DNA of 57,958 bases, taken from Bacilli bacterium. GTDB lineage: Bacteria > Bacillota_I > Bacilli_A > RF39 > UBA660. Each line of letters begins with the position of its first letter. Within the stretch, counting starts at the first letter, position 1. This document shows positions 20,340 to 52,867 of this stretch, piece by piece. A model generated the notes under the pieces. That model ran no database searches. It was not told the origin of the DNA and saw only the letters and a list, made by a program, of their open reading frames with translations. The stretch covers positions 1 through 57,958 of the forward strand of contig JBJEEB010000006.1 in NCBI GenBank assembly GCA_051872655.1. The letters are read 5' to 3'. The translations under genes and the position numbers were made by a program.

Positions 20340-20393
20340 TGATAATGAGACTTACAGGCTTATTATCATTTAGAGAGATTTTAGGCTCTCTAA
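20340..20393 (+). other. Twin-hairpin element, copy 1 (function unknown)
   Basis: TGATAATGAG-ACTTACAGG-CTTATTATCA, t, TTAGAGAG-ATTTTAGG-CTCTCTAA. Confidence 0.75.
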
Positions 20394-20447
20394 GAATAAA
20401 TAAAAATAATACTTGAAAATATGTTTTTTATATGATAAAATACTTTG

Positions 20448-20668
20448 TGTAAAGCGAAGAAAGAAAGAGTAATAGAAAGAGTATTTTAAAGAGAGTCTAT
20501 GATGGTGGAAATTAGATAAAGAAAAACTATTATGAATGGTTCTGGAGCAGTTATATCTAATAGGTATAAACGGTGGTTACGTTATAACTTAATGAGTGTA
20601 TTATTATAAAATAAGGTGGTACCGCGGATATTTATTCGTCCTTTTGTGTCCATCTTATTTTTTTATTA
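20448..20668 (+). promoter_or_regulatory. T-box riboswitch with Met (AUG) specifier
   Basis: Stem I AGAGA/GGTGGAA motifs, specifier GA-ATG-G-TTC (ATG 20536-20538), T-box AAGGTGGTACCGCG; promoter TTGAAA-N17-TAAAAT at 20413-20441. Confidence 0.9.
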
Positions 20669-20678
20669 GAGGTGTATT

Positions 20679-21164
20679 ATGAGAAAATTTGAGAGAATAA
20701 GTGAGAAAGAGTTTTTAAAAGATGTTTCAAATGCTAATTATGAAGATATATTATTACCTAAGAGAAGTACTAAAAATAGTGCTGGATATGATTTTTATTC
20801 TTTGTATGATATTACTATTAAACCTAATGAAATAGTAAAAATTCCTACTGGTATTAAAGTATGTATGAATGAAAATGAATTTCTAGGAATATTTATTCGT
20901 AGTAGTTTGGGATTTAAGTATAATATTCGGATGTGTAATCAAGTTGGTATAATAGATGCTGATTATTATAATAATAAAGATAATGAGGGTCATATTTTTG
21001 TATGTTTACAAAATGAGGGTGATAAAGATTTTGTAATTAATAAAGGTGATAGATTTGTTCAAGGTATATTTATGCCATTTTTAATAACTGATGATGATAG
21101 TACTACTAGTAAAAGAATTGGTGGTATTGGTAGTACAAATAAAGGAGAAGATAATAATGAATAA
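20679..21164 (+). CDS. dut: Trimeric dUTPase
   Basis: SAGYD, RSS, GIIDADY, QGIF, RIGGIGST motifs. Confidence 0.93.
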   Translation: MRKFERISEKEFLKDVSNANYEDILLPKRSTKNSAGYDFYSLYDITIKPNEIVKIPTGIKVCMNENEFLGIFIRSSLGFKYNIRMCNQVGIIDADYYNNKDNEGHIFVCLQNEGDKDFVINKGDRFVQGIFMPFLITDDDSTTSKRIGGIGSTNKGEDNNE

Positions 21165-22695
21165 TGATAAGAAATTTTATATTAGTACGGCAATCGCTTA
21201 CACTAGTTCAAAGCCACATATTGGTAATACTTATGAGATAGTACTAGCGGATGCTATTGCTAGGTATAAGAGATTAGAGGGGTATGATGTTTATTTTCAG
21301 ACTGGTACTGATGAACATGGTCAGAAGATAGAAGATAAGGCTAGAGAAGCTGGAGTTAGTCCACAGGAATATGTTGATAAAATAGCAGGAGAAATTAAGT
21401 CTATTTGGGATTTAATGGATACTAGTTACGATAGATTTGTTAGAACTACTGATAAGGAACATGAAGAAAAAGTGCAAAAAATATTTAAGAAGTTATATGA
21501 TCAAGGAGATATTTATAAAAGTGAGTATAAAGGACTATATTGTACACCATGTGAGTCATTTTGGACGGAGAGTCAGCTTGTAGATGGTAAATGTCCTGAC
21601 TGTGGTAGAGACGTTAATGAAGCAACTGAAGAAGCATATTTCCTTAGAACTAGTAAGTATTCTAAGTGGCTTGAAGACTATATTGAAAGTCATCCTAATT
21701 TTATTGAACCTGAATCAAGAAAGAATGAAATTATGAATAACTTTATTAAACCTGGTCTTCAGGATTTATGTGTATCTAGAACGTCGTTTAAGTGGGGGGT
21801 TCCAGTATCTTTTGATGATAAACATGTTATTTATGTATGGATAGATGCACTATCTAACTATATTACTTTTTTGGGGTATGATGTAGATGGTAATTACACT
21901 CCTGAATTCGAGAAGTATTGGCCTTGTAATGTGCATTTAATTGGTAAGGATATTCTTAGATTTCATACGATATACTGGCCAATTATGCTTCATCTACTTG
22001 ATTTACCTCTACCAGAGAAAATATTTGGACATCCATGGCTTTTATTTGGTAGTGATAAAATGAGCAAGAGTAAGGGAAATATTGTTTATGCTGATGATTT
22101 GGTTAATGAGTTTGGTGTCGATGCTGTTAGATTCTATATGTTACATGAGATTCCTTTTGCTTCAGATGGTAATTTTACTAGAGAACTGCTAATCGATTCT
22201 ATTAATGGTAATTTGGCTAATGTATTAGGTAATTTAGTTAATAGGACAATTGGTATGGCTAATAAGTATTTTGATGGTATTATTGAAAATAAGAATGTTA
22301 GTGAAGAAATTGATACTGAGTTTAAAGATTATATTATTAGTAGAAAGGCTGTCATTGATGAGAAGATGAATGATCTTAGGGTGGCTGATGCTTTAGAAGA
22401 AGTTATTAATATTTATAGAAGATGTAATAAATATATTGATGAAACTACTCCTTGGGTACTTGCAAAAGATGATAGTAAGAGAGATAGACTTGCAACAGTA
22501 ATTTATAATTTGGTAGAGGGAATTAGAATTGGTACGGTATTAGTTAGAGCATTTATGCCTTCAACTAGTGAGAAAATTTTCTATCAGATTAATACTGAGT
22601 TAAAAGATTTTGATAGTATCAAGAACTTTGGCGGATACGTTAGTGGTACTAAAGTTAATACTCCTGAAGTATTATTTCAAAGAATTGAGAACTAG
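21157..22695 (+). CDS. metG: Methionyl-tRNA synthetase (short form, no C-terminal tRNA-binding domain)
   Basis: PHIGN, GTDEHG, zinc knuckle, KMSKS; ATG 21157 after AGGAG overlaps the dut stop. Confidence 0.96.
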   Translation: MNNDKKFYISTAIAYTSSKPHIGNTYEIVLADAIARYKRLEGYDVYFQTGTDEHGQKIEDKAREAGVSPQEYVDKIAGEIKSIWDLMDTSYDRFVRTTDKEHEEKVQKIFKKLYDQGDIYKSEYKGLYCTPCESFWTESQLVDGKCPDCGRDVNEATEEAYFLRTSKYSKWLEDYIESHPNFIEPESRKNEIMNNFIKPGLQDLCVSRTSFKWGVPVSFDDKHVIYVWIDALSNYITFLGYDVDGNYTPEFEKYWPCNVHLIGKDILRFHTIYWPIMLHLLDLPLPEKIFGHPWLLFGSDKMSKSKGNIVYADDLVNEFGVDAVRFYMLHEIPFASDGNFTRELLIDSINGNLANVLGNLVNRTIGMANKYFDGIIENKNVSEEIDTEFKDYIISRKAVIDEKMNDLRVADALEEVINIYRRCNKYIDETTPWVLAKDDSKRDRLATVIYNLVEGIRIGTVLVRAFMPSTSEKIFYQINTELKDFDSIKNFGGYVSGTKVNTPEVLFQRIEN

Positions 22696-22713
22696 TAATT
22701 GGTTCTCTTTTTT
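22688..22713 (+). terminator. metG terminator
   Basis: GAGAACTAG-taa-TTGGTTCTC followed by a T-run. Confidence 0.7.
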
Positions 22714-22838
22714 GTATTGACAAATATAGATTATTTATAATATAATAATTTTCGATTTAGATGTTTTATATCTGCACTTTGGTCGTATAGATTTATGGCT
22801 ATATAGATTAATTAGTTTTATAGCGCGGAGGTATAAAT

Positions 22839-23213
22839 ATGAATAATAAAATTATGAAATATCTAAATCAAAATAAATCTTGTAGTTTTAGTAAACTTCT
22901 TTTTTCGTTTATCGATAAGAGAGGAATTACTGATTCAGAGGTTTATAAAAAAGCTTGTATAGATAGGAGATTATTTTCTAAAATTAGGTGTAATGAAAAT
23001 TACATACCTAAAAAAGATAATATAATTAAATTGTGTTTATCTTTATCTTTAAATAAAGAAGAGATAAATGTATTATTAAATAGTGCTGGGTATTCACTTA
23101 GTATGAATAATGATGTCGATTTGATTATATCTTTCTGTATAGAAAATAATATTTATGACATTAATGTTGTAAATGATTATCTATATACTTTTACTAACAC
23201 TGTCTTAAATTGA
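22839..23213 (+). CDS. XRE-like HTH protein
   Basis: FSKLLFSFID, VYKKACIDRRLFSKIR, LLNSAGYSLS, DLIISFCIEN; own TTGACA/TATAAT promoter and GGAGG RBS. Confidence 0.72.
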   Translation: MNNKIMKYLNQNKSCSFSKLLFSFIDKRGITDSEVYKKACIDRRLFSKIRCNENYIPKKDNIIKLCLSLSLNKEEINVLLNSAGYSLSMNNDVDLIISFCIENNIYDINVVNDYLYTFTNTVLN

Positions 23214-23225
23214 TGGTGTTTTTTT

Positions 23226-23242
23226 GTCACTTTTAAAGAGAC
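23226..23242. promoter_or_regulatory. Candidate operator upstream of the coiled-coil gene
   Basis: GTCAC-N7-GAGAC near-palindrome abutting the -35 position of a TATACT -10 box (23264-23269). Confidence 0.45.
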
Positions 23243-23304
23243 CAATTTATTCTACTTTTTAGGTATACTTTTAAGTGTGAAAGGAAATATTGGAGGTGTT
23301 ATAT

Positions 23305-23811
23305 ATGAAAATTAATATTTCAGGATTAATGAATATGATAGCGGAGGATGAAAGAAAATGTAGTTCTTTATCTAATTCTTTGAGAACGAAAGTTTATAGT
23401 GTTTCTATTCAAGAGTTAAATGGTACTGTAAATGTTATTGAAGACTATAAAGATGAATTTGACAAAGAGTTAGAAGAATACAGAAAGATTATGTCTAGAA
23501 TATCTAAACTTAAATCTATTTTGTATGAGAAGAATAATAGCTTTAAATTATCTGATGGTAGAACTATACAGACCGCTATTAACGATAATTCTAATTTGAG
23601 AAAGATGAAATTAACTTATGATAATATGTTAAGTTTCAGAAATATTAAAAGAAGGGTTACTGAAGTAAATAATTCTTATTTTGAATGTAAAACTGTTAAT
23701 TTTGATATTGATGAAATTAAGAATGAGTTAATAGTAATTGAATCTAAAATTCAGAATACTGACTTTGAAATATCTAAACTTAATTCTATTGAATTTGAAA
23801 TAGATATTTAA
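23305..23811 (+). CDS. Coiled-coil protein, DIP1984/DUF6847-like
   Basis: Helical; pattern KLKSILYEKN..DGRTIQTAI..FDIDEIK..IQNTDFEISKLN resembles the family; GGAGG RBS. Confidence 0.6.
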   Translation: MKINISGLMNMIAEDERKCSSLSNSLRTKVYSVSIQELNGTVNVIEDYKDEFDKELEEYRKIMSRISKLKSILYEKNNSFKLSDGRTIQTAINDNSNLRKMKLTYDNMLSFRNIKRRVTEVNNSYFECKTVNFDIDEIKNELIVIESKIQNTDFEISKLNSIEFEIDI

Positions 23812-23815
23812 AAAT

Positions 23816-24075
23816 ATTGGTCTTACTAAGTTATTTTGTAAGTTAAATGATGGTAACTGCTATCAGCCAATTGCTTTCTCTTATACTTGATATATTTATG
23901 AATGTTGATAGATTTGTGTTATGATTTATTACTTATTAGTTACTTTATTGTATCAATTTTTTTATTAGTTATAGTTTATTATTAAATTATATTATGGATA
24001 AGTGATTTAATTTTAAGTATAGGGAAAGTATGGAGAAGATATATCATATTTATGTATGATGTATCTTCTTTACTT
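23816..24075 (+). ncRNA. Candidate structured RNA / 3' UTR element
   Basis: Junction ATTGGT/GCCAAT enclosing two hairpins; long stem 23872-23890 with 24013-24030; TTATNNN repeats; terminal terminator hairpin. Confidence 0.5.
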
Positions 24076-24185
24076 TATTTATAAATTGTAAAGCATGCGT
24101 AAAATGTCTAAAAATAATATTTACTAATTTACTAAATTATGTTATATTTCTATTGTAGTACCTGCAGTGGAAAAGGAGAAAGAGC

Positions 24186-24353
24186 ATGCTTAGTACTAAG
24201 AGATGGAACTTTATGTTTAAGATATCATGTGGTATTTTAGCAGGTGTTTTGGTTTTCTTAATTTTTGTAGGTAGTAATTTTTTTGATTTATTATATCTTG
24301 GTATAATAATTATGTTTATTTTTAAATATTTAGTTGATAAAAAGTTAAAATAA
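24186..24353 (+). CDS. Small 55-aa membrane protein (absent from the ORF track)
   Basis: AAGGAG RBS; MLSTKRWNFMFKISCGILAGVLVFLIFVGSNFFDLLYLGIIIMFIFKYLVDKKLK; promoter TTTACT-N17-TATATT with TG extension at 24120-24148. Confidence 0.7.
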   Translation: MLSTKRWNFMFKISCGILAGVLVFLIFVGSNFFDLLYLGIIIMFIFKYLVDKKLK

Positions 24354-24399
24354 TTGTATCATATTAATGGTATGATTTTTTTATTAGGAGGTATATTTT

Positions 24400-25155
24400 A
24401 TGTATATAGATACACATTGTCATGTATTAAATGATTATTATGATGATATAGATGAAATTATTAATAAGTGTAAAAATAATGATGTTAATAAAATTATAGT
24501 AAGTGGTTGTGATATAGAAACTAATAAAGAGGTATTAGAACTTGTTAATAAATATGATATTATTTATGGTACTATTGGTTTTCATCCTACTGAACTTAAT
24601 GATTTTAAAGAAGAATATTTTGATTTTTTAGAAAAAAATATTATGAATAAAAAGATAGTTGGTATAGGAGAAATTGGACTTGACTATCATTATGAAGATA
24701 CAGATAAAAATGAACAAATTAATGTATTTACTAGACAATTAGAAATAGCAGAAAAATATGATAAACCTATTGTAGTTCATAGTAGAGATTCTATTCAAGA
24801 TACATATAATATATTAGGTAATTATAAATTAAAGGGAAGTATTCATTGTTTTAGTGGATCTGTAGAAATGGCTAAATTATTTACTAAACTTGGATATAAA
24901 TTGGGAGTAGGAGGTATAATTACTTATAAAAATGCTAAAAATATTAAAGAGGTAGTAAAAAATATTGATTTATCATATATTTTACTAGAGACTGATAGTC
25001 CTTATCTTAGTCCTGAACCTTATAGAGGTACTAAGAATGATCCTTCAAATATTCCTTTTATAGCTGGGGCTATTGCTGATATAAAAAATGTATCAAAAAT
25101 AGATGTTGCAAGGATTACTACTGATAATGCTATAGCAGAATTTGACTTTTTATAA
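24400..25155 (+). CDS. tatD: TatD family DNase
   Basis: DTHCH, GEIGLDY, HCFSG, LETDSPY. Confidence 0.95.
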   Translation: MYIDTHCHVLNDYYDDIDEIINKCKNNDVNKIIVSGCDIETNKEVLELVNKYDIIYGTIGFHPTELNDFKEEYFDFLEKNIMNKKIVGIGEIGLDYHYEDTDKNEQINVFTRQLEIAEKYDKPIVVHSRDSIQDTYNILGNYKLKGSIHCFSGSVEMAKLFTKLGYKLGVGGIITYKNAKNIKEVVKNIDLSYILLETDSPYLSPEPYRGTKNDPSNIPFIAGAIADIKNVSKIDVARITTDNAIAEFDFL

Positions 25156-25206
25156 AAAAGATGTTACAATTAATATGCTTAAAATATTAATGAGGTGAGA
25201 CATAAT

Positions 25207-25926
25207 ATGAAAAAGATAGCTGCGAAAATAATAACTATTTCTTCACAGTTATTGGTAGCTAGTGTATTTTTATTCTTATTATTTTCTGGTGAGAATACTA
25301 ATAATAAAAGTGTGGTAGTAGATAATAATAATTTTAATAAAATGGCAGATAAGACTTTATTTCTTTTTAAGAGTTTAGATGAAACTAAAAAAGAAGAAGA
25401 TTCTAATGTTATAGTAGAACTTAATTCTGCTGATGAGAAGGAAGAATTAAGTGAAAAAGTTAAAGATGAAGATAATGACCTATCATTAACAAATAAAGAA
25501 GAGGTAAAGGAAGAAACTCCTAAAAAAGAGGAAAGTAATAGTACACCATTAACTCCTGATTTTAGTGATAGAGTAGCCATTGAAACATTTACTGGTAATT
25601 TAACAGGATATGGTCCAGATTGTGTTGGTTGCGGAGGAAAAACTAGTACTGGTTATGATTTAACACAAAATATATATTATGAAGATAGTGAATTTGGACG
25701 TGTTAGAATAGTAGCTGCTGATAAGTATTTTCCGTTTTATTCTATAATTAGAATAAGTGATGTTCCTGGTATGGATAGTTTTCTTGCTATTGTGCTTGAT
25801 AGAGGTGGTAATGTTGGATTTGATAAAGGTACTTTATTTGATTTAGCATTTTCTACTGAAAAAGATCCTAATATTTTAGGTTTAACTAGAAATGTAAAGT
25901 TTGAAGTTTTAAGAAGTGGTAATTAG
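25207..25926 (+). CDS. Membrane-anchored 3D-domain-like cell-wall protein (YabE position)
   Basis: N-terminal TM helix, acidic linker, TGYGPDC..VAAD..LDRGG..LFDL; follows tatD. Confidence 0.65.
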   Translation: MKKIAAKIITISSQLLVASVFLFLLFSGENTNNKSVVVDNNNFNKMADKTLFLFKSLDETKKEEDSNVIVELNSADEKEELSEKVKDEDNDLSLTNKEEVKEETPKKEESNSTPLTPDFSDRVAIETFTGNLTGYGPDCVGCGGKTSTGYDLTQNIYYEDSEFGRVRIVAADKYFPFYSIIRISDVPGMDSFLAIVLDRGGNVGFDKGTLFDLAFSTEKDPNILGLTRNVKFEVLRSGN

Positions 25927-25982
25927 CACTTCTTTTTTTCGACACTATTTTCTTTTTATATATCATATAATTAAATTGAGGT

Positions 25983-26915
25983 ATGGATATGAAGAAAATA
26001 ATAATATTTACTGCATTAATTTTATTTATTCCATTTATTATAGTTAATTTTTTTAATGTTGATAAAAAAGAAGAAATAAAATTAAAGTATGAGTCTAATA
26101 TTATTATTAGGGTTAAAAGATTAAGTAGTAACGAAATTGAGTATTTACCATTAGAAGAATATATAGTTGGTGTATTAGCAGGTGAAATGCCTATTTATTT
26201 TGAAAAAGAAGCTTTTAAAGCACAGGCTGTAGCTGCGAGAAGTTATGCTTTAAAGAAAATTGAGTATAATAAAGATAATGAATATGATGTAGTAGATTCT
26301 GTACTTAATCAGGTATATTTAGATAATTATTATCTTAAAGAGGCTTGGCAAGATAAATATTTAGATAATATTAATAAACTTAGAGAAATTGTTAATGAAA
26401 CTTCTTTGGAGTATTTGGATTATAATGGAGAAGTAGTAGATGCTTTGTTTTTTTCTACGAGTAATGGTTATACTGAGAATGCTTCTTTAGTATTTAATAT
26501 TGATTTGCCTTATTTGCAAAGTGTTTCTTCAATGTGGGATAGTTCTACGAGTAGTGCTTTTAGAAGTACTAAAAAAATTTCTATAGATGAATTTTATTCT
26601 TCATTGAATCTTGAATATTCTAATACTTTGGATTTTAAGGTATTAAGAAGAAGTAGTACTAATAGAATTTTGAATCTTAGTATTAATGGTATAGAGTTTA
26701 CTGGTAAAGAAGTGTATGATAAATTAGGTTTAAAGTCTATGGATTTTTCTTTAAAACAAGATGGTAATAATATAATTATTGATACTATAGGATATGGTCA
26801 TGGTGTTGGTATGAGTCAATATGGAGCAGAAGGAATGGCACTTGAAGGTTATTCATATAAAGATATTCTTTCTCATTATTATGTTGGAACTTCTATTAAA
26901 AAAATTGAAAATTAG
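25983..26915 (+). CDS. spoIID: Stage II sporulation protein D
   Basis: EEYIVGVLAGEMP, KAQAVAARSY, GYGHGVGMSQYGA; SigE-like CATATAAT at 25964. Confidence 0.95.
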   Translation: MDMKKIIIFTALILFIPFIIVNFFNVDKKEEIKLKYESNIIIRVKRLSSNEIEYLPLEEYIVGVLAGEMPIYFEKEAFKAQAVAARSYALKKIEYNKDNEYDVVDSVLNQVYLDNYYLKEAWQDKYLDNINKLREIVNETSLEYLDYNGEVVDALFFSTSNGYTENASLVFNIDLPYLQSVSSMWDSSTSSAFRSTKKISIDEFYSSLNLEYSNTLDFKVLRRSSTNRILNLSINGIEFTGKEVYDKLGLKSMDFSLKQDGNNIIIDTIGYGHGVGMSQYGAEGMALEGYSYKDILSHYYVGTSIKKIEN

Positions 26916-26962
26916 TGTATATATTTTTTAAATTAGGAAACAATTATAGTAGAGGTGAAAAT

Positions 26963-27604
26963 ATGAAAATGAAGAGAATTAAACCATTAGTAATACCTAT
27001 GATTTATGGTGTATGTGTTATTGCATTTTTATTTTGTATGTATTTTGCTGGTAAACTATCTAATAATTTTTTATTTAAGGATAAGAACGTTACTAATTAT
27101 GTAGATGGTGAAATTGTATCTGAGTATGATAATGACATACCTGTAGTTAGTACTAGTTCTATTATTGTAAGACCTTATTTAGATAGTAATGTATCTATTT
27201 ATAAGACATTTTATGATTATCAAGATGAAATAAATAATCAGGAAAACTCAATTATTCTTTATGAGGGAACTTATATGCAAAATTCTGGTGTAGATTATAC
27301 TAGTGATAATTCATTTGATGTAATTAGTATTCTTGATGGTACTGTGATTAATGTTTATGAAAATGAAATTCTTGGTACTTCTATTGAAATACGTCATAAT
27401 AATGATCTTATTAGTGTATATCAAAGTTTATCTGATGTTACTGTAAAAGAAGGAGATAATGTTATTCAAGGTCAAATACTTGCTAAAAGTGGTTTATCTA
27501 ATATTAATAGGGAATTAAATAATCATTTGCACTTTGAATTATATTATAAAGGAACTATAGTAAATCCAGAAGAATATTATAATAAATCTGTTGATGAATT
27601 ATAG
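26963..27604 (+). CDS. spoIIQ: SpoIIQ-like M23 protein
   Basis: TM helix, NSGVDY, HLHFE; between spoIID and spoIIID; SigF-like GTATA-N14-GGAAACAAT at 26917-26944. Confidence 0.82.
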   Translation: MKMKRIKPLVIPMIYGVCVIAFLFCMYFAGKLSNNFLFKDKNVTNYVDGEIVSEYDNDIPVVSTSSIIVRPYLDSNVSIYKTFYDYQDEINNQENSIILYEGTYMQNSGVDYTSDNSFDVISILDGTVINVYENEILGTSIEIRHNNDLISVYQSLSDVTVKEGDNVIQGQILAKSGLSNINRELNNHLHFELYYKGTIVNPEEYYNKSVDEL

Positions 27605-27666
27605 GCATTAATGCCCTTTTTTTACATAATATATTTATTTATAAATATAATTTTATAGGTGAATAT

Positions 27667-27921
27667 ATGAATAAAAAAATTTTGGATAGGGTTATTGAAG
27701 AGGCTAATTATATTTTTAATACTAAAAAGACTATAAGAGAGACTTCTTATGTATTTGGAGTGTCTAAGAGTACTGTACATAAAGATATTAGGGAAAGATT
27801 AGTTTTACTTGACAAGAATTTATACGAAAAAGTGTCAAGTATTTTGGAATATCATACTTATATTAAGCATATTAGGGGAGGACAAGCTACTAAAAGGAAG
27901 TTTTTGAATAAAAATATATAA
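27667..27921 (+). CDS. spoIIID: Sporulation transcription factor SpoIIID
   Basis: FGVSKSTVHKD..ERL, HIRGGQATK. Confidence 0.93.
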   Translation: MNKKILDRVIEEANYIFNTKKTIRETSYVFGVSKSTVHKDIRERLVLLDKNLYEKVSSILEYHTYIKHIRGGQATKRKFLNKNI

Positions 27922-27978
27922 TCTTCCCTATTAAAAAATGTTAAATTGTGGTAAAATGTAAATAAGGATGGTGATTTT

Positions 27979-28971: not shown

Positions 28972-29000
28972 TAATTAAACTAAAGTTTTATGGAGTAACT

Positions 29001-30095: not shown

Positions 30096-30205
30096 ATTTT
30101 GCAGATTAATATTATTTTAGCAATGTAAAAATTATGTCAAAAGAAATAAATTTTATTTAATTTACTTCTTTTTTTTAGTATAATTATATTGAGGATGGTG
30201 ATGTT

Positions 30206-30824: not shown

Positions 30825-30889
30825 TATTACTTAATTTTTTCTTTTAATTTTAATTATTATGTGATAAAATACTAACAAGCGGTGATTTT

Positions 30890-31873: not shown

Positions 31874-31886
31874 TATTTGTTAGGAG

Positions 31887-37959: not shown

Positions 37960-37966
37960 TGATATT

Positions 37967-42337: not shown

Positions 42338-42426
42338 CTTTTAATTATTTTAGTAAATTAGTATAAAGATATTTATTTTGTAGTTAATTTTTGTTATAAT
42401 AAGTGGGTAAGAAAGAAGTGATATAA

Positions 42427-43524: not shown

Positions 43525-43535
43525 AAAGGATTAAT

Positions 43536-45320: not shown

Positions 45321-45321
45321 A

Positions 45322-45400
45322 AAAGAGACAATTTTATTGTCTCTTTAGTACTTACAAAATGCTGATTTAATAAAAAATACCTTACATAAAGGTATCTTTT
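45322..45400. terminator. Two terminator-like hairpins between pepF and the convergent gene
   Basis: AAAGAGACAA-tttta-TTGTCTCTTT and ATACCTT-acata-AAGGTAT flanked by A/T runs. Confidence 0.6.
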
Positions 45401-45424
45401 TGACTTTTATACAATAAAATTATT

Positions 45425-45478
45425 TCATTTAAAGACTACAGGCTTTAAATGACAGTGAGAGACCTTAGGCTCGAACTG
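45425..45478 (+). other. Twin-hairpin element, copy 2
   Basis: TCATTTAAAG-ACTACAGG-CTTTAAATGA then CAGTgaGAG-ACCTTAGG-CTCgaACTG. Confidence 0.75.
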
Positions 45479-45484
45479 ATATTA

Positions 45485-45895
45485 TTATTTAACACTTCTT
45501 AGATAAGCAACTAAATTATTAGCATGGTTATAGTAGGTAGTATTATTATTTGATTTTAGTACTATACTATCATTATCAATTATTTGTATATCTATTTTTT
45601 GCATCACATTATTGTTATCATATCTTACACTAATGGTATCATAACATATATCGTTGTTACCAGTCCAAGGACCATTATTTGATAGTTCTTTCCAATATGT
45701 ATCTATTTTATTTAATACTTCTTTATTTAATATAGTTTCAGTATTATTACAATCTACATAATAGATATCGTAGTTATTAGTATTTAATATATCTTTAGTC
45801 CAATTACTATTTTGTTTATTTATTAATATCAATACTATTATTCCTAGAAAGATTAGAATTGTAACTCCTATTACAATATAATTTTTTTTAGTCAT
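45485..45895 (-). CDS. Hypothetical membrane-anchored protein
   Basis: N-terminal TM helix, AGGAGG RBS, two cysteines. Confidence 0.75.
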   Translation of the reverse strand: MTKKNYIVIGVTILIFLGIIVLILINKQNSNWTKDILNTNNYDIYYVDCNNTETILNKEVLNKIDTYWKELSNNGPWTGNNDICYDTISVRYDNNNVMQKIDIQIIDNDSIVLKSNNNTTYYNHANNLVAYLRSVK

Positions 45896-46010
45896 ATATC
45901 CTCCTTATGTTCTAACTTAATATTATCATTTAGAAAAAATTGTGTCAATAATTTTAATATAGATATTTCTTTTTCTGTCAAATTAATGTATACTTATAAT
46001 AGGTGATTAG

Positions 46011-47100
46011 ATGGAACTTTATGAATTAAAAAGAGAATATAAATTACTTGAAGATAAAATTAATAATCTTAGGAGGTCTCTTTGACTTAGATGGTAAGAT
46101 AAAAAGAGTAGAAGAAATTAATAATTTAATGTTAGAAGGTTCTTTTTGGGATGATAGAGAGACTTCTGATAGATTAGTTAGTGAACTTAAATATGATAAG
46201 AATATTATTGATAATATTAATGATTTAAGTAATAAACTATCTAGTAATATTAGTATGCTTAATGATATTAAGAGTGATGATACTGAGTTATTGTCTTTGG
46301 TAGAAGAAGATTATTATGATATTAGTAGATTAATTGAAAAAGCTACTCTTGATACTTATTTAAGTGGTGAATATGATAATAATAATGTTATTATGGAAAT
46401 TCATGCTGGAGCAGGTGGTACTGAATCTTGTGACTGGGCTATGATGCTATATAGAATGTATACTAGATATGCTAGTAAGAATAATTATTCTATTATTGAA
46501 CTTGATAGGCAAGATGGTGAAGAAGCTGGTATTAAGTCAGTTATGTTTCAGATTAATGGACCTTTAGCGTATGGTTATTTAAAACATGAAAAGGGTGTAC
46601 ATAGACTAGTTAGAATTAGTCCATTTGATGCTAATAAGAGGAGACATACTTCATTTGCTGCGGTGGATGTAATGCCTGAGATTAATAATAAAATTAATAT
46701 AGAAATTAATGATAGTGATATTAGAGTGGATATTTATCGTAGTAGTGGTCCTGGTGGACAAGGTGTAAATACTACTGATAGCGCTGTTAGAATTACACAT
46801 ATTCCTACTGGTATTGTTGTTACTTGTCAGAATGAAAGAAGTCAGATTAGAAATAAGGAAAAGGCATTAGAGGTACTTAAAGGAAAACTTTTATTACTTG
46901 AAGAGGAAAAACAAAATGAAAAATTAAATGGTATAAAGGGTGAACAATTATCTAATGGATGGGGTAGTGCTAAAAGAAGTTATGTAATGCAACCTTATAC
47001 TTTGATTAAGGATAATATTAGTGGTTATGAAAGTAGTAATGTTAATGCTATATTAGATGGTGAGATAGAAGAAATGTTAGAATATGGTATAAAAGAATAA
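46011..47100 (+). CDS. prfB: Peptide chain release factor 2 with programmed +1 frameshift
   Basis: 24-codon ORF from ATG 46011 ending AGGAGG-TCT-CTT-TGA-C (TGA 46083-46085); SPF and GGQ motifs in the +1 frame. Confidence 0.96.
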
Positions 47101-47114
47101 AAGGGTGAATTATT

Positions 47115-48017
47115 ATGGGAATATTAGATTATTTTAGAAAGAAAAAAGTTGATAGTATTGTAGACAAAGTAAATAAGAAAAATATTGGTAAGAGATATTG
47201 TATGCTTATTCTTGGTACTTTAATAGTGGCTTTTTCTTTTAATTTATTCTTTTTGAGATATAATTTAGCTTGTTTTGGAGTAAGTGGTATATCTATTATA
47301 CTTAGTAAGTTTGGAGTTAATCCATCTATATTTATCTTAGTATGTAATATTTTACTTATGATACTTGCTTATTTTACTTTAGGTCTTGAAAATACTAAAA
47401 ATCAATTAGTAGGAGCTGTTATATATCCAATATTAGTACAACTTACTAGTTATATTACTAAATATATTGATTTAGGTGATACTGAAATGATTGTTATTGC
47501 AGTAGTTGGAGGAGTACTAGCGGGTATTGGATATGGTCTTATATATAAAAGTAATTTTTCTACTGGTGGTACTGATGTTATTGTGGGTATTATTCATAAG
47601 TATTTGAAGATGTCTATGGGAAATGCTGGCCTTATAGTAAATGGTTCTATTATATTACTTGGAAAACTTGTTTTTGGATGGAATATAGTACTTTATGCTA
47701 TTTTGGTTTCTTACTTGATATCTATATTTACTGATAAGGTATTACTTGGTATATCTAAAAGTAAAGCTTTTTATATAGTTGTTGATAAAGAAAAAGATGA
47801 TATGGTAAGAGATTTTCTTATTTCACTTCCTGATGTGGGAGCCACTATTATTGATGCAGAAGGAGGATACTCTAATGATGAAGAAACTCTATTATTAGCG
47901 GTTGTTCCTACAAGAAGTTATTTTATTGTTAAAGAAGGATTAAAAGAAATAGATGATAATATATTTTTCTTAGTTTGTGATTCATATGAAGTTAGTGATA
48001 AAGGTGATTTGTCATGA
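47115..48017 (+). CDS. YitT family membrane protein
   Basis: STGGTD, GATII..GGYS, EIDDNIF. Confidence 0.85.
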   Translation: MGILDYFRKKKVDSIVDKVNKKNIGKRYCMLILGTLIVAFSFNLFFLRYNLACFGVSGISIILSKFGVNPSIFILVCNILLMILAYFTLGLENTKNQLVGAVIYPILVQLTSYITKYIDLGDTEMIVIAVVGGVLAGIGYGLIYKSNFSTGGTDVIVGIIHKYLKMSMGNAGLIVNGSIILLGKLVFGWNIVLYAILVSYLISIFTDKVLLGISKSKAFYIVVDKEKDDMVRDFLISLPDVGATIIDAEGGYSNDEETLLLAVVPTRSYFIVKEGLKEIDDNIFFLVCDSYEVSDKGDLS

Positions 48018-48895
48018 CTTTGAATAAGAGAAAAAAATTTAATACTAAGAGATTAGAGAAGACTATTAAAAATAAGAATACTTATTATAATTTCTTTCTA
48101 TTTATGATGGGTATGGCTATTAGTGCTATTTCTGTTAGTGTATTTTATTCTCCTAATGGTGTTGTTACTACTGGTAGTACTGGACTAGCTATTATTCTTA
48201 ATAAATATTTGAATATTGATTTATCTTTATTAGTACTTTGTTTATCTTCAATATTATTAGTTTTATCTTTTTTGATATTTGGAGTTAATTATGGTTCTAA
48301 ACATATTTTAGGTACAATATTATTTCCAATATTTATTAAGAGTGCTACTTTAATTAATGAATTTATTGATTTTAAAGATACTTCTTTATTTTTACTTATT
48401 ATTATAGGTAGTGTACTTTCTGGAATAGGATTTGGTTTAGTAAAAAGAAGTAATTATAGTTTGGGTGGATTTTATGTACTATATGATATTATTAATCAAA
48501 AATTAAAAATATCTATAGGTAAGGCTAGTTTAATATGTAATAGCTTACTTATTATTTTTAGCATATTTACTTTTGGTATTAGTAAATGTATTTATGCAAT
48601 GATTGGTTTATATGTGGCTAGTTATGTTGGTGATAAAATTATGCTTGGTATTTCTAATAATAAAGCTTTTTACATTGTTACTAGGAAGTCTTTTGAAGTT
48701 AGAGATTATATTATAAATAATCTAAATCATACTGTTACAGTCGTTACTGCTAGAGGGGGATATTCTGATAGAAAGAAGAAAATGTTACTTTGTGTAATAC
48801 CTACAGTAGAATATGTAAAAATGAAGGAAGTAATTAAAGCAATTGATGATAAGGCATTCTTTTTAATTACGGATTGTTATAGTGTATCTAAATAG
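48014..48895 (+). CDS. YitT family membrane protein (paralogue)
   Basis: SLGG, VTVVTARGGYS, IDDKAF. Confidence 0.83.
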   Translation: MTLNKRKKFNTKRLEKTIKNKNTYYNFFLFMMGMAISAISVSVFYSPNGVVTTGSTGLAIILNKYLNIDLSLLVLCLSSILLVLSFLIFGVNYGSKHILGTILFPIFIKSATLINEFIDFKDTSLFLLIIIGSVLSGIGFGLVKRSNYSLGGFYVLYDIINQKLKISIGKASLICNSLLIIFSIFTFGISKCIYAMIGLYVASYVGDKIMLGISNNKAFYIVTRKSFEVRDYIINNLNHTVTVVTARGGYSDRKKKMLLCVIPTVEYVKMKEVIKAIDDKAFFLITDCYSVSK

Positions 48896-48980
48896 GAAAT
48901 TTATGTAAATTTGTTTATAGTTGTTTTAAAAAATGATAAATAATGGTATAATTATTTATACAGATATGGAGGAGTTTGAT

Positions 48981-49676
48981 GTGGAGTTAATTAGAATTAG
49001 CGATGTTCAAAAGACATATAAAACTGGTACTGTTGCTTTATATGATTTAAACCTTAGTATAAAAAAAGGTGAATTTGTATTTGTAATAGGTGCTTCAGGT
49101 AGTGGTAAATCTACTTTGATTAAGATGTTATATAGAGAAGAAAAACCTGATAAAGGTTCTATTATAATAGGTGGTATTAATGTAGCAAAACTTAGAAATA
49201 GAAAAGTTTATGCTTTAAGAAGAAAGTTAGGAGTTGTCTTTCAAGACTTTAAATTATTACCTAAACTTACAGTATATGAAAATGTTGCTTTTGCTATGGA
49301 GGTATTAGGATACGATAAAAAAGAAATTCATAAGAGAGTAATGGAAGTTCTTGATTTAGTTGGACTTAAAAATAAAGTTAGACAATTTCCTGATCAGTTG
49401 TCTGGTGGTGAACAGCAGAGAGTAGTTATTGCTAGGGCGATTGTTAATAAACCTAAATTACTTATTTGCGATGAACCTACTGGTAATTTAGATCCTGATA
49501 CTTCAATGGAAATAATGAAAGTACTTGATGAAATTAATGCTATGGGAACTACTATTATAATGGCAACTCATGATAGAGATATTGTTGATAGAATGAAGAA
49601 GAGAGTTATTTTACTTGATAGAGGAAGACTTGCAAAAGATATAGAGAAAGGAAGCTATTGTAATGAAAGGTTTTAG
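48981..49676 (+). CDS. ftsE: Cell division ATP-binding protein FtsE
   Basis: GASGSGKST, VFQDFKLL, LSGGEQQR, DEPTGNLDP; GTG 48981 after GGAGG. Confidence 0.94.
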   Translation: MELIRISDVQKTYKTGTVALYDLNLSIKKGEFVFVIGASGSGKSTLIKMLYREEKPDKGSIIIGGINVAKLRNRKVYALRRKLGVVFQDFKLLPKLTVYENVAFAMEVLGYDKKEIHKRVMEVLDLVGLKNKVRQFPDQLSGGEQQRVVIARAIVNKPKLLICDEPTGNLDPDTSMEIMKVLDEINAMGTTIIMATHDRDIVDRMKKRVILLDRGRLAKDIEKGSYCNERF

Positions 49677-50583
49677 AAGTATAAAAAGATATTTTAGAGA
49701 TGCATTACATGGAGTATTTAGAAACTTTCCTCTATCACTAGCTTCAATATCTTGTATTACTATTACTTTAATTGTAGTAGCAGTATCTCTAATTTTATCT
49801 TATAATGTTGAACATTTTTCTGATTCTATTAGAAAAGATGTAACTGTTGTTATGTTTTTGAAAAAAGAAACTACTAAGGAAGATTTAGATAAGATAAAAA
49901 AAGAATTAGAAAGTATTGAAAATATTGAAAATAGTAGTATTGTACTTAAAACTAAGGATGAATCCGCTAAAGAATTAAAAGAACAAAATGAAATATTTGC
50001 TACTACTGTTGATAGATGGACTAATGAGACTAATCCACTGCTTGACAGTTATATGTTTAAAGTAAAAGATATTGTTAAGATTGATGATACTGTTAAGGAA
50101 GTAAAAAATTTATCTTTTTCAAAAGATAAAATTAATAATATTAATTATGGAGAAGATATTGTTCATCAATTAGTAGAAGTATTTAATGTGGTAAAGAAGA
50201 TATGTATAGTAGCAGTTGCTTCACTAGTTCTTGTTACTGCATTCTTAATAGCAAATACTATTAAACTTGCTATTTATTCAAGAAAAAGAGAAATTGAAAT
50301 AATGAGGTTAGTTGGAGCTTCAAATATTTCAATTAAGATACCATTTATTATTGAAGGCTTATTTATTGGTATTCTTGGTTCTGTTATTCCAATACTTATT
50401 ACCATATTTGGATATACTTCACTATTTAATTATTTTGGTGGTAAGTTATTTGGATCTGGTCTTGCATCACTAGTTAATCCTATGCCATTTGTATATCAAG
50501 TATCTGGTGTTCTTTTAGTAATTGGTATAGTTGTTGGTATGCTAGGTAGTTATCAAGCTGTAAGGAAATACTTGAAAATATAG
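49663..50583 (+). CDS. ftsX: Cell division permease FtsX
   Basis: Four TM helices, NPL, NTIKL..SRKREIEIMRLVGA. Confidence 0.93.
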   Translation: MKGFRSIKRYFRDALHGVFRNFPLSLASISCITITLIVVAVSLILSYNVEHFSDSIRKDVTVVMFLKKETTKEDLDKIKKELESIENIENSSIVLKTKDESAKELKEQNEIFATTVDRWTNETNPLLDSYMFKVKDIVKIDDTVKEVKNLSFSKDKINNINYGEDIVHQLVEVFNVVKKICIVAVASLVLVTAFLIANTIKLAIYSRKREIEIMRLVGASNISIKIPFIIEGLFIGILGSVIPILITIFGYTSLFNYFGGKLFGSGLASLVNPMPFVYQVSGVLLVIGIVVGMLGSYQAVRKYLKI

Positions 50584-50967
50584 TATTTCTTTTTTTATCC
50601 ACAGAGCGGTTAAATAATAGCTTACCAACTACAATGCTCTCTTTCTAAAAATATTGTATATCAAATATTATTAAAAGTGGATACTTATATCTTTTAAAAA
50701 AATATAATTTAAAATAAATTATGTTTTATAATTAGTAATATAAATTTAAATAATAGACAAAAAAGTTAAAAACACGATAAAAAATCACATTGTATTCTTT
50801 TAAAAACTTAACATAGTATAAAGATTATAAAATTATGCAACTTTATCAAAAATAATTCTACAATCAAATTTAAATCTAATGTAAATAAGATGACGATCAA
50901 GTGAAAAAAATTAGTGAACACTTGAAAATATGTTATAATTAATTTAGCATATAGGAGGATAATTATA

Positions 50968-52065
50968 ATGAAATATAATAGAAATTTAGAAATAATATTG
51001 AATAGAATTAAGAATGAAACTAAAGATTTTGTAAAAATTTTCTCATCTTCTTTTCCAAAAAGAATGAAATTATATGAAAATAAACAAAAATATATAATTA
51101 CAAAAGATACTCCTACTGAAAGATTCTTTTATACAGAAGAAGAAAAGAAAAAATATTCAAATGAACATGATAAATATTTTTGTTATATAATAGAAAAATT
51201 CGTAACAACAATACAAGAAAAAAATCCCAACTTTGATTTATCTAATTTTTATAGTAAATTTGATGATATAATGTTTTATGACATTAAATCTTCTGGGGTT
51301 TATATTGGTGGAACGTACATTCATATTGGTGGATTTTATAGTTCAATGTTTAATGTAATAGTAAATCGTGAGCATTCAGATAATAAAGATAAAGTAGTTA
51401 CTCATGAATTATTACATGCAGCTTCTTCTAAAAATTGTTTTTTATTTGGGTTTTATAATGGTCTTATAAAAACTGGTAGGTGGCTAAATGAAGGTTATAC
51501 TGAATTATTAAATAACAGATATTTTGATAGCAATTTTGGTTTTTCATATCCTAGCGAAGTTTTTCTTATGAATAAACTAGAACATATTATTGGAAAAGAA
51601 AAAATGGAACATTTATATATAAATAGTGATTTAAAAGGATTAATTAATGAAATAAATAAATATTTAAGTAAAAAACAAACATGGTCATTTATTAGAGGAA
51701 AAAATATATCAAAAAGATTATTATATTTACAAAAAATGAGTATTAATAAAAGTAAAAATGAAAATAAACCAATCGATAATTTATTTATTTCACAAATACA
51801 AAGTGTCTTTTCAACTATACAAAACAGAAATCTAATGAAAAAAATTCTAGAAATTTATATTCCTAGAAAATCATATATATCTCTTTTACAAGCTAATTTA
51901 AGCAATAATGATGAATCTAATATAAATGAATTATCAACTAAAAAAAATGCAAAAGTATATAGCAAAAAACGTGGCTTTGCAACTATAACTGCTTTGATTA
52001 CTTTATTATCAATAATTCTAGGTGCAGTAATTATTTTTATAATTATAAATAATCTTTTGATATAA
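50968..52065 (+). CDS. Putative zinc metallopeptidase-like protein with a C-terminal membrane tail
   Basis: THELLH...LNEGYTE gluzincin-like motif; C-terminal KKRGF plus hydrophobic helix; AGGAGG RBS. Confidence 0.65.
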   Translation: MKYNRNLEIILNRIKNETKDFVKIFSSSFPKRMKLYENKQKYIITKDTPTERFFYTEEEKKKYSNEHDKYFCYIIEKFVTTIQEKNPNFDLSNFYSKFDDIMFYDIKSSGVYIGGTYIHIGGFYSSMFNVIVNREHSDNKDKVVTHELLHAASSKNCFLFGFYNGLIKTGRWLNEGYTELLNNRYFDSNFGFSYPSEVFLMNKLEHIIGKEKMEHLYINSDLKGLINEINKYLSKKQTWSFIRGKNISKRLLYLQKMSINKSKNENKPIDNLFISQIQSVFSTIQNRNLMKKILEIYIPRKSYISLLQANLSNNDESNINELSTKKNAKVYSKKRGFATITALITLLSIILGAVIIFIIINNLLI

Positions 52066-52205
52066 AGTTAGTATGTGACCTGATGTCAAAAAAAGACATA
52101 TTAGATTTAATAAATAATTTTGAAATTGAAACATGAAAAACAAATAAAAGCTTATGAACTTTAGTTCGTATATTGTTTTGAAATGAAACTCTTGATATAA
52201 TAAAA

Positions 52206-52748
52206 TTATTCTAATTTTATATATTCATTTATACCATATTTTTCATTTACTATATCATAGAATATATATGTATGAGGAGGATTATATGTTAGGTATATAA
52301 ATCCTATATATATAATTATTATTATTGGTACTGAGAGTGTATTTAACACTTTTAGTTTTTTTTCTTTTAATATGTTATAACTTACTATTTGACCTATTAT
52401 ATATACTATTATCATAAGAATTATGGATATAAATATATTTTCTCCAAATAGTTTATATAGTGGTATATATATTACTAGATATAGTGGTATTTGCATTAGA
52501 GGAATGAAATATGTATTAAATGAAAAATTATTATATTCAATATTATATTTTTTTAAAAGAATATATTCAATTAAACTATATATTAATGTTGAAGTGAATA
52601 GTATTTTCATATGTTCCCAAATGCTTTCATTTACTGGAAATATAAAAGAAAAGATTATGTTTGGACATACTTCATAGGCAAAGTGAGATATAAAAGATAG
52701 TATTGTTATAATAATTACTCCAAGTAATTTTATTTTCTTTAAGTTCAT
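52206..52748 (-). CDS. Membrane protein, DUF6512-like
   Basis: SHFAYE, PVNESIWEHMK, LTYNPP; multiple TM helices. Confidence 0.7.
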   Translation of the reverse strand: MNLKKIKLLGVIIITILSFISHFAYEVCPNIIFSFIFPVNESIWEHMKILFTSTLIYSLIEYILLKKYNIEYNNFSFNTYFIPLMQIPLYLVIYIPLYKLFGENIFISIILMIIVYIIGQIVSYNILKEKKLKVLNTLSVPIIIIIYIGFIYLTYNPPHTYIFYDIVNEKYGINEYIKLE

Positions 52749-52807
52749 GTTATTACTCCTTTATTTATTATATTATTATTATGGTTAAATATTAAAAAAA
52801 TATAGGA

Positions 52808-52867
52808 TAATTTTAGAGACTATTTTAGGCTCTAAAATTACTTTATGAAGACCTTAGGCTTCATAAA
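52808..52867 (+). other. Twin-hairpin element, copy 3
   Basis: TAATTTTAGAG-ACTATTTTAGG-CTCTAAAATTA, c, TTTATGAAG-ACCTTAGG-CTTCATAAA. Confidence 0.78.

Follow-up and report, generated by a model that had tools for sequence, protein, structure and literature searches.

Tandem-hairpin repeats, possibly REP-like, with a conserved apex and a strand-bound orientation in a lineage of Bacilli

The window, the whole stretch of 57,958 nucleotides analysed here, belongs to the genome (G000, 91% complete) of a pig-gut bacterium from a Bacilli lineage with 25% G+C. It contains three sites with tandem hairpins on the + strand, and re-inspection of the sequence bore out their initial description, in that the stems are variable yet complementary while the apex AG-AC-(loop)-AGG-CT is constant. 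The window hairpins were scored with a covariance model, R1. At site 1, hairpin A (20340..20368, + strand; R1 20.2 bits) has a 10-bp stem with one G.T pair and the apex AG-ACTTACAGG-CT. A one-base spacer separates it from hairpin B (20370..20393, + strand), which has an 8-bp stem, TTAGAGAG/CTCTCTAA, and the variant apex AG-ATTTTAGG-CT; the T.G closing pair reported previously is located here (apex AT..AGG). Some 20 nt beyond the end of hairpin B lies the -35-like TTGAAA of the promoter of a T-box leader.

Site 2 begins with hairpin A (45425..45452, + strand), with a 10-bp stem, the apex AG-ACTACAGG-CT and an R1 score of 40.5 bits (E 1.5e-7). After one base follows a second hairpin (45454..45477, + strand), AGT-GA-GAG / CTC-GA-ACT, which carries a tandem G.A/A.G mismatch and the apex AG-ACCTTAGG-CT. 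This type, termed the third-hairpin type, was counted in 4 arrays and also occurs in G000 at C21:109430, C21:116922 and C23:16697. Site 3 comprises three hairpins, all on the + strand: hairpin A (52808..52840; R1 30.3 bits), with an 11-bp stem and the long apex AG-ACTATTTTAGG-CT; hairpin B (52842..52867; R1 37.9 bits), with a 9-bp stem and the apex AG-ACCTTAGG-CT; and hairpin C (52868..52892), which had been missed in the sequence-only reading and consists of a basal stem and a GA-rich internal loop (CATC-GA-AC..GT-GTGA-GATG) without the AGAC apex. Together with an A-rich linker and a weak hairpin/T-run, they form a module (52804..52923, + strand) between the divergent genes for a DUF6512 protein and an arylsulfotransferase-like protein, adjoining a promoter-like site of the - strand gene.

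Whether modelled as DNA or RNA, all three sites fold into the described hairpins; z-scores for the + strand range from -4.4 to -8.1, and this strand was the more stable one in six of six comparisons. None of the copies has a U-tail, as first described, and their 3' flanks are A-rich. The pattern AGAC-N2-9-AGGCT matched six times in the window, against 1.01 expected (maximum of 4 in 100 shuffles), and five of the six matches fall inside the three sites.

Further copies, on which the original proposal depended, were found throughout the genome. G000 contains 97 hairpins (66 with the exact apex and 31 with one mismatch) in 43 arrays, made up of 31 doubles and 12 singles; some arrays carry an extra third hairpin with a purine-rich internal loop. 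Successive stems abut directly in 23 cases and are separated by 1 nt in five. No inverted, opposite-strand neighbours occurred within 300 nt in the G000 arrays; two such pairs were seen on contig C25 of a congener, G015. Apex words number 81 in the whole genome, compared with 4-21 for composition-matched control words, and in 70 of them at least 6 of 8 flank positions pair; shuffling the flanks among hits lowered this number to 11.3 on average (maximum 24). The AGAC apex class was the commonest among 3,368 intergenic hairpins found in G000.

The covariation of the stems was likewise upheld. In an alignment of 74 hairpins, the rows of which were preselected for pairing, 96.9% of the cells pair (62.1% in shuffles), all eight variable pairs change on both sides, and the covariation score is 0.829 versus 0.156. 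The apex consists of an A.G mismatch and a C-G pair, rarely replaced by T-A, under a loop that starts with a pyrimidine and ends in A. Certain stem subfamilies recur, e.g., CTTAAG, TTTGAAG and CTAGGTAAG, and an apex-anchored alignment of all 43 arrays revealed no invariant flanking position beyond AGAC/AGGCT. G.T wobbles and GA mismatches had both been thought to favour the + strand as the folded one. The asymmetry between the strands resides in the A.G mismatch of the apex and in the GA loops of third hairpins, and the stems do not contribute to it: among 1,064 stem cells in the skew-concordant hairpins of three genomes, 985 are Watson-Crick, 15 G.T and 11 A.C. Without an excess of wobbles on the motif strand, the stems look DNA-like. 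No known family was recognised, as in the sequence-only reading: nothing in Rfam 15 matched the arrays at gathering score. In the window only a T-box, tRNA and SRP RNA reached gathering, the best matches at sites 2 and 3 (E 0.08-0.7) lay far below it, and 140 kb of G013 holding 11 arrays yielded tRNA only.

The arrays are dispersed, one per spacer, mostly about 2-230 nt from a stop codon. Their contexts (tandem, convergent and divergent, 29/5/5) resemble those of all long spacers (246/22/55). A strict detector recognised no canonical terminator at 26 of the 43 gene 3' ends facing an array, so some arrays could lie in 3' UTRs. The placement nevertheless argues against a role inside mRNAs, given the position of site 3 between divergent genes, that of site 1 upstream of the T-box promoter, and the mixed contexts overall. 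An association with accessory genes or gene-insertion points found no support. Site 1 alone has a neighbour of this kind, an ABC transporter gene that other species lack at the corresponding position, and intergenic regions of at least 100 nt were equally syntenic between G000 and G013 with arrays (27%) and without (27%).

Among the genera searched, the AGAC-apex family was seen in this genus only, where pattern hits range from about 3 to 154 per genome. It is a structure-constrained repeat family that is conserved across species: arrays are kept, with an invariant apex, at orthologous sites of species that share 50-89% identity in the flanking proteins. The site 1 array is retained in eight species, and in G017, G022, G010, G015, G005, G014 and G001 the orthologous hairpin A has a different but still complementary stem. 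Eleven species, G000 among them, retain the site 3 array, in which the stems covary and C-G is swapped for T-A at the apex; the closing pair of hairpin A is T-A rather than C-G (ATTATAAG) in 12 other species, a compensatory change. In hairpin C, the core is conserved and the basal stem covaries in G014, G022, G005, G010, G015, G013, G012, G023, G050 and G002. Orthologous arrays of G000 and G013 preserve the A-B-C order and show compensatory stem changes, and strains in four metagenome runs retain sites 2 and 3.

Empty sites were also observed. In G018 the site-3 module is missing as one block, the two aligned pieces (query 3-554 and 675-1251) being 2 nt apart, and the picture at this site is similar in G019, G006, G011 and G007. 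The site 3 spacer measures 205 nt in G000, 108 nt in G021 and 86 nt in G018. Decayed copies were found in G048 and G008. Moreover, a second type of twin hairpin, marked by AGCGAAGCGG, is present in 19, 24, 8 and 4 copies in G047, G009, G020 and G004, respectively, and in 0-2 copies elsewhere. In some other species this type occupies the same sites 1 and 3; co-evolution of cis sites with a trans-acting factor would be expected to produce such "dialects" at shared positions.

A partner among HUH nucleases or RAYTs, as had been suggested, does not co-occur with array load. The Y1 transposase family PF01797 gave no match in the 91% complete G000. It was detected in 8 of 29 genomes of the genus without tracking the load, being absent from G014, G015 and G022, which have the highest copy numbers, and present in the low-copy G009 and G016. 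The copy in G013 is an ordinary IS605-like tnpA-tnpB element, with no such hairpins nearby. Searches of G000 for the rolling-circle replication protein families Rep_OBD and Rep_trans found none, and a Rep_1 search was uninformative since its control remained silent. DnaG is present.

The orientation of the arrays is independent of that of the neighbouring genes (73 same, 64 opposite), as the sequence-only reading had it. It follows instead the sign of the keto skew at four-fold sites, with which 95 arrays agree and 21 disagree in three genomes (35/6 in G000, 35/8 in G013 and 25/7 in G015), leaving 21 of 116 arrays on the minority strand. Where skew and gene direction conflict, 42 arrays follow the skew and 10 the genes. 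The motif lies on whichever strand is richer in G+T at synonymous positions, a strand that in other bacteria is the lagging-strand template and transiently single-stranded. The orientation thus tracks the strand with the mutational signature of single-strand exposure, as predicted by the earlier idea of a single-stranded DNA signal on the lagging-strand template. We infer that the skew marks fork direction. It is a synonymous-site signal with opposite sign in two gene classes, and the G+T-rich strand carries dnaN-gyrBA, the S10 operon and rpoB. Protein genes in G000 are not co-oriented with it, about half being on the other strand. The layout of G013, a single contig, tells against this view of fork direction: the sign of the skew changes near 1.2 Mb and 0.6 Mb, the flips in gene orientation fall near 0.12 and 0.84 Mb, and clusters of DnaA boxes lie on both sides of dnaN-gyrBA at 0.19-0.20 Mb.

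The best reading of these data is a clade-specific, REP-like family of structured intergenic repeats made up of twin or triple hairpins. To the observed family, structure, conservation and strand rule, it adds, beyond the assumed fork direction, two suppositions: folding at the level of DNA, and a protein as the reader. The two or three hairpins, head to tail with 0-1 nt between stems that vary freely while pairing, would fold as single-stranded DNA behind the fork, where a putative protein specific for both sequence and structure would read them and either use the arrays or propagate and maintain them. We favour this account tentatively, at somewhat less than an even chance. The negative searches for a partner protein, the 21 arrays on the minority strand and the layout of G013 count against it. 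So does the possibility that template switching, by correcting quasi-palindromes, keeps the stems perfect in place of selection.

Like REP, BIME and REPIN elements, the arrays are short extragenic palindromes whose copies, numbering tens to hundreds, are clustered, confined to particular lineages and maintained vertically. REPs are defined by a conserved tetranucleotide (GTAG or CGTC) that tags the stem foot (PMC3733652), and are recognised as single-stranded hairpins in which unpaired residues at the loop edge matter for cleavage by RAYT (PMC3733652, PMC3333891, PMC6006769). In the arrays, by contrast, it is the apex that is conserved rather than the stem and foot tag, and neither GTAG nor CGTC is found. 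The units are direct and on one strand, whereas BIMEs and REPINs are inverted doublets, and their orientation is locked to the skew strand. A RAYT (TnpA-REP), usually flanked by REPs, was not found in G000; CGTC-type REPs likewise have no dedicated transposase (PMC3733652). Furthermore, the host is a Bacilli lineage with 25% G+C, while the main text of the REP survey makes no mention of Firmicutes.

Integron attC sites likewise conserve structure over sequence and are strand-specific, and they fold as single-stranded DNA, as the arrays would, with mismatched bases that define the active strand. In attC, however, the base of the stem is conserved and the sites form cassette arrays beside an integrase gene, whereas here the apex is conserved, the stem base varies, the arrays are dispersed singly, and no link to variable genes was found. 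The single-strand origins (sso) of rolling-circle plasmids also have orientation-dependent hairpins, active only on the displaced strand, whose terminal loop contains a short conserved word. They are, however, single-copy plasmid elements of about 150-300 nt, nothing ties the arrays to priming, and the Rep searches of G000 in the two families above were negative.

A bolder extension of the preferred reading is, in our estimate, somewhat more doubtful: a subclade of uncultured gut Bacilli would maintain some 40-75 arrays per genome, folded on the single-stranded lagging-strand template and read by a dedicated putative protein. The system may also be linked to an atypical organisation of replication, one where the skew between strands is uncoupled from gene orientation and the dnaA locus. 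If so, sister-species dialects at identical intergenic positions would represent genome-wide co-evolution of cis sites and their reader, and the arrays a new kind of replication-strand-specific structured DNA signal, neither REP/RAYT nor transposon relic.

About as plausible as that extension is the proposal that the arrays are small RNA genes in their own right, or modules to which proteins bind at the RNA level, with a short transcript starting just upstream of hairpin A. A protein would bind the conserved loops or GA motifs, or the loops would pair with targets, and the co-orientation with replication would stem from selection acting on strongly transcribed units. A -10-like hexamer lies 0-20 nt upstream of the first stem, on the motif strand, in 75 of 119 arrays (53.9 +/- 4.8 in shuffles, maximum 68; 32 in the mirror control), an enrichment that fits a transcript of their own and counts against the DNA reading. 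However, these words lack other promoter signals (TGn in 3.8% versus 8.0% in the background; at least 4 of 6 matches to -35 in 16.0% versus 18.2%). One subfamily in G013 and G000 has a conserved promoter-like box before hairpin A, and in G012, G013, G023 and G050 the site 3 array is followed on the same strand by a hairpin and T-run, but overall terminator-like sites downstream are not enriched (43 versus 33 of 136). As RNA, the + strand folds better than the - strand at all three sites; moreover, A.G and tandem G.A motifs are common, and purine-rich internal loops typical, in RNA-protein sites, which favours RNA over our preferred reading. Against the RNA proposal stand the stems without wobble excess, the absence of an Rfam match, and the protein genes, which are not themselves co-oriented with the skew. 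The only RNA run (X18) provided thin contigs only for this organism.

It is unlikely that the arrays are miniature relics of mobile elements, i.e., MITE- or PATE-like pairs of transposon-end hairpins without host function, spread by a replication-coupled single-strand mechanism whose transposase was lost or is unrecognised, with the strand rule as a record of insertion. The ends of IS200/IS605 elements resemble the arrays in having two subterminal hairpins, of which one strand is read; these elements act on, and insert into, the lagging-strand template, so that their orientation follows replication (PMC6006769). The clean occupied and empty sites among congeners, the recurring stem subfamilies, the occupation of all kinds of long spacers in background proportion, the widely ranging loads and the decayed copies would all fit such an origin. 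Yet the end sequence is identical throughout among copies of a given IS, as in fresh transposon copies, whereas the stems here differ between copies, and no transposase tracks the load. Orthologous persistence with compensatory changes and an invariant apex, as well as retention by the metagenome strains, also speak against relics, and the two element types at the same two sites in different species are poorly explained by independent insertion.

Ordinary transcription terminators or stabilisers of mRNA 3' ends that share a loop by chance are very improbable: the arrays do resemble intrinsic terminators in being hairpins just after genes, many of which have no other terminator by the strict detector, but they lack a U-tract, occur in either gene orientation, are tandem and have a conserved asymmetric apex, and no terminator-like structure was called at the arrays of sites 2 and 3. 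With one shared loop and mostly one direction along the chromosome whatever the genes do, they look more like a signal read in single-stranded DNA than an ordinary gene stop sign. Half of them are antisense to the preceding gene, five lie between divergent genes, and canonical terminators with a hairpin and T-run are numerous in the genome; species poor in the motif have such a terminator at site 1 in place of the array.

Three arrays of hairpins arranged head to tail (A, B and sometimes C) lie on the + strand of the window, at 20340-20393 (site 1), 45425-45477 (site 2) and 52808-52892 (site 3). At each site the hairpins abut with spacers of 0-1 nt, as the sequence-only reading, in which only twin hairpins were described, had it; the abutment can be read directly in the sequence at all three places. 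The stems, of 8-11 bp, are different in every hairpin, while the apex is constant (AG-A-C/T-(loop)-A-GG-CT), placing an A.G mismatch beneath a C-G closing pair (T.G once). The second hairpin of site 2 carries a tandem G.A/A.G mismatch, and site 3 includes a third hairpin (52868-52892, + strand) with a GA-rich internal loop and without the AGAC apex. All of the window hairpins formed as drawn in ViennaRNA folds with both DNA and RNA parameters, so that the early description of stems that differ yet remain complementary around a conserved apex stands. The z-scores of the + strand ranged from -4.4 to -8.1, and the + strand fold was stabler than that of the - strand in 6 of 6 comparisons. The pattern AGAC-N2-9-AGGCT has six matches in the window (1.01 expected), five of which fall in the three sites, and a covariance model scan of the window gave no copy beyond the known ones.

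The window corresponds to contig C6 of an assembly of 1.36 Mb (G000; 25.5% G+C, 67 contigs, 91% complete), and the public sequencing runs containing its sequence are mostly pig-gut metagenomes. Across this genome, the apex word was found 81 times, versus 4-21 times for composition-matched control words, and 70 of the 81 had pairing flanks (at least 6 of 8 positions), versus a mean of 11.3 and a maximum of 24 when flanks were shuffled among the hits. With one apex mismatch permitted, 66 + 31 hairpins were detected; of the 43 arrays that they form, 31 are doubles and 12 singles, and eight have the GA-loop third hairpin. The dispersed element first proposed from three copies recurs genome-wide, and the flanks of its apex pair far more often than shuffled flanks. 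Stem-to-stem spacing was 0 nt in 23 cases and 1 nt in 5, and no array of this genome has an oppositely oriented neighbour within 300 nt. Of 188 hairpins drawn from three genomes, 175 begin the loop with a pyrimidine. In a census of 3,368 intergenic hairpins of G000 (stems of at least 7 bp), the AGAC-type apex was the commonest class (49, with a further 20 as reverse complement); ordinary hairpin-plus-T-run terminators were also numerous.

One subfamily of arrays has a conserved, promoter-looking box of ∼30-60 nt directly 5' of hairpin A, in 11 copies between 429 and 1077 kb of the single-contig genome G013 and in G000 at C22:16520-16570, C30:1620-1672 and C25:32880-32930. In G013 the box sits 3' of the members of one family of paralogous genes and of the terminator of that family; it had no Rfam match.

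The stems covary, as had been claimed from the window. When 74 distinct hairpins taken from three genomes were aligned, pairing was seen in 96.9% of stem cells (62.1% in shuffles), both-sided changes occurred at all eight variable pairs, and the covariation score of 0.829 (versus 0.156) was attained by none of 500 shuffles; since these rows were preselected for pairing, the flank-shuffle comparison (70 of 81 versus 11.3) is the unbiased test. More telling for structural conservation than this alignment are the orthologous arrays. G000 and G013 have 11 syntenic array-bearing spacers in common, six with arrays in both, and in the orthologous arrays the A-B-C order is kept, stem pairs are exchanged in a compensatory manner and hairpin C retains its purine-rich loop. 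At site 1, the twin hairpin is found ∼20 nt 5' of a T-box promoter in eight species; the T-box leader of the window (20448-20646, 97.2 bits) lies downstream of the array and precedes a dUTPase-like ORF and a methionyl-tRNA synthetase gene. Both the stem of hairpin A and the upstream gene differ between G000 and the other species at this site. The synteny of site 3 is conserved in 28 of the 29 genomes of the genus. Its three-hairpin module (window 52804-52923) occurs in ten further species, where the stems covary, and in most of these T-A takes the place of C-G as the apex closing pair. The module is decayed in two species, cleanly absent from G018 and G021 (spacers of 86 and 108 nt versus 205 nt in G000) and also absent, judging from split alignments, in G019, G006, G011 and G007.

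Within the genus, pattern counts ranged from ∼3 to 154 per genome (0-7 for a reversed control). Seven genomes chosen by GyrB, 84-91% identical to that of the window, had background-level counts. Among 401 genomes sampled across the class, 49 of them from the same family (in 40 genera), only G000 (40) and G018 (10) had more than 6 hits. Species poor in the AGAC type can contain a second type of twin hairpin, in which the first hairpin has an AT-rich stem of 8 bp and a TTG loop and the second is short, G+C-rich and contains AGCGAAGCGG or a relative. Copies of the AGCGAAGCGG type numbered 19 in G047, 24 in G009, 8 in G020 and 4 in G004, with 0-2 elsewhere, and they occupy the same sites 1 (loci L165, L166, L169 and L179) and 3 (L341 and L345). 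In several species another conserved palindrome, of the TATCAAC-AATACCTG-TTGATA type, recurs beside a hairpin array or a terminator (G000 C21:109338-109364; also upstream of site 1 in L165, L166 and L169). No Rfam family matched the arrays, in agreement with the initial impression that they belong to no known family, and literature searches on RF39 turned up no hairpin repeats.

The orientation of the arrays follows the chromosome strand. Contigs fall into two composition classes: at four-fold sites, the coding strand is G+T-rich in one (keto skew ∼+0.35) and A+C-rich in the other (-0.2 to -0.33), with coding DNA split about evenly between them; as the skew is seen at four-fold degenerate sites, it reflects mutational asymmetry rather than an amino-acid effect. 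When counts from G000, G013 and four G015 contigs were pooled, arrays lay on the G+T-rich strand in 95 cases versus 21, and agreed with local gene orientation in 73 versus 64; where skew and genes disagreed, 42 arrays followed the skew and 10 the genes. The corresponding binomial values (2e-12, 0.49 and 9e-6) are indicative only, because arrays that share a genome cannot count as fully independent. The independence from neighbouring genes that was noted in the window thus extends to the pooled set, and in G000 the hairpins between co-oriented genes were 21 antisense and 21 sense, with 9 between divergent and 7 between convergent genes. A G+T-rich strand is usually the leading-strand sequence, i.e., the lagging-strand template, which fits the location of dnaN-gyrBA, the S10 operon and rpoB, all on the G+T-rich strand; we infer that the array strand is the lagging-strand template.

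Skew and gene orientation are uncoupled in these genomes. Along the whole G013 contig, the skew at synonymous sites switches near 1.2 Mb and again near 0.6 Mb, with weak values over 0.6-1.0 Mb, whereas the genes change orientation near 0.12 and 0.84 Mb. The same uncoupling was seen in G000 (C21, C33, C16, C23 and others) and G015 (C11 and C19). The strand with the lagging-type signature holds about half of the coding DNA, in co-oriented gene blocks of 40-100 kb, which may bear on the tolerance of replication-transcription conflicts in reduced genomes. In G013, DnaA-box clusters flank dnaN-gyrBA at 0.19-0.20 Mb, away from the skew switch, the best match to a short dif-like probe (762 kb, one mismatch) was at about chance level, and tRNA genes were too few to give a replication sign. 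The only G000 contig with a joint flip of skew and gene orientation is C4 (∼19-25 kb; L323 7500-12800). Next to this switch, at ∼20 kb, lie clpP, the genes of two serine recombinases (a small resolvase and a large enzyme) and one for a 377-aa protein that has no match in Pfam; the contig holds no replication gene.

Taken with the stems and the placement of the arrays, the strand rule leads us to put first, tentatively, a function in single-stranded DNA. That the arrays act as RNA appears somewhat less likely; its main support is an enrichment of -10-like hexamers 0-20 nt 5' of the arrays on the motif strand (75 of 119; composition shuffles gave 53.9 ± 4.8 and the mirror control 32), but these words have TGn and -35 matches no more often than background -10-like words. 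Against RNA, too, stem cells are nearly all Watson-Crick (985 of 1,064), without an excess of G.T (15) over A.C (11), and the wobbles once taken to favour a folded + strand thereby lose their weight. The array of site 1 stands 5' of a promoter, that of site 3 has been retained in a divergent intergenic region next to the promoter-like site of a - strand gene, and the mix of gene contexts around arrays is that of any long spacer. Terminators were not enriched 3' of arrays. Where a gene end faces an array, a strict detector, which misses, e.g., the hairpin at 45374-45400, placed a terminator before the array in 12 cases and after it in 5, and gave none in 26. Among 24 runs containing the sequence, one is recorded as RNA and two more were guessed to be RNA; run X18, an RNA run available as contigs only, had a depth of ∼1 at sites 2 and 3, too thin for transcripts. 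Joints from 45449 to 52841 in runs X1 and X2, with 22 letters on the short side, join two hairpin copies and were attributed to the effect of the repeat on the assembly graph.

For the single-stranded-DNA reading, the strand rule in three genomes is a rare clue to a non-coding element that acts, or is made, on single-stranded DNA. The genus offers species rich in arrays, others with decayed copies, with a different type at the same places or with clean empty sites, and through these contrasts both the search for a reader protein and the decision between DNA and RNA become open to direct test.

The sequence-only reading suggested looking for co-occurrence with a recombinase or HUH protein. In the 91% of G000 represented, no Y1 transposase, Rep_OBD, Rep_trans or RAYT enzyme was found; DnaG is present. 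The Y1 family is likewise missing in the genomes with the most arrays and occurs in array-poor ones, the G013 copy being an IS605-like tnpA-tnpB. In Proteobacteria, dispersed hairpin repeats are well documented and are accompanied by a RAYT enzyme. The arrays resemble REP/RAYT systems in being dispersed, lineage-specific, hairpin-forming and vertically kept, but lack the foot tag, the RAYT gene and the inverted pairing; they are direct tandems in which the usual conservation is reversed, the loop being fixed and the stem free. The portions of the literature consulted on strand-biased intergenic stem-loop repeats and on REPIN/RAYT in Firmicutes comprised REP/RAYT work and general papers only, and the REP papers among them describe no comparable family in low-G+C Bacilli. 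Viral carriage was dismissed, as single hits of the 14-letter apex word in at least 118 viral stretches gave a hairpin at 2 of 80 examined loci, the chance level.

The association with accessory genes proposed for the window holds only loosely, at site 1, and finds no support genome-wide. At site 1, an ABC-transporter gene (18534-20297, 587 aa), with paralogues elsewhere in G000, lies between a SpoVT-like gene and the array and is missing there in other species. Array-bearing spacers showed no excess at synteny breaks (27% syntenic both with arrays and in other long spacers), a comparison low in power because G013 is distant. ORFs of similar size to the transporter, at C16:15491-17221 and C21:5013-6776 of G000, each lie between two arrays that are opposite in orientation. 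Near site 3, although not adjacent to the array, contigs of three metagenome runs have 6 letters in place of 1,588 bp (50604-52191); the missing stretch contains a 365-aa ORF without Pfam match (50968-52065), which is a strain-level accessory gene.
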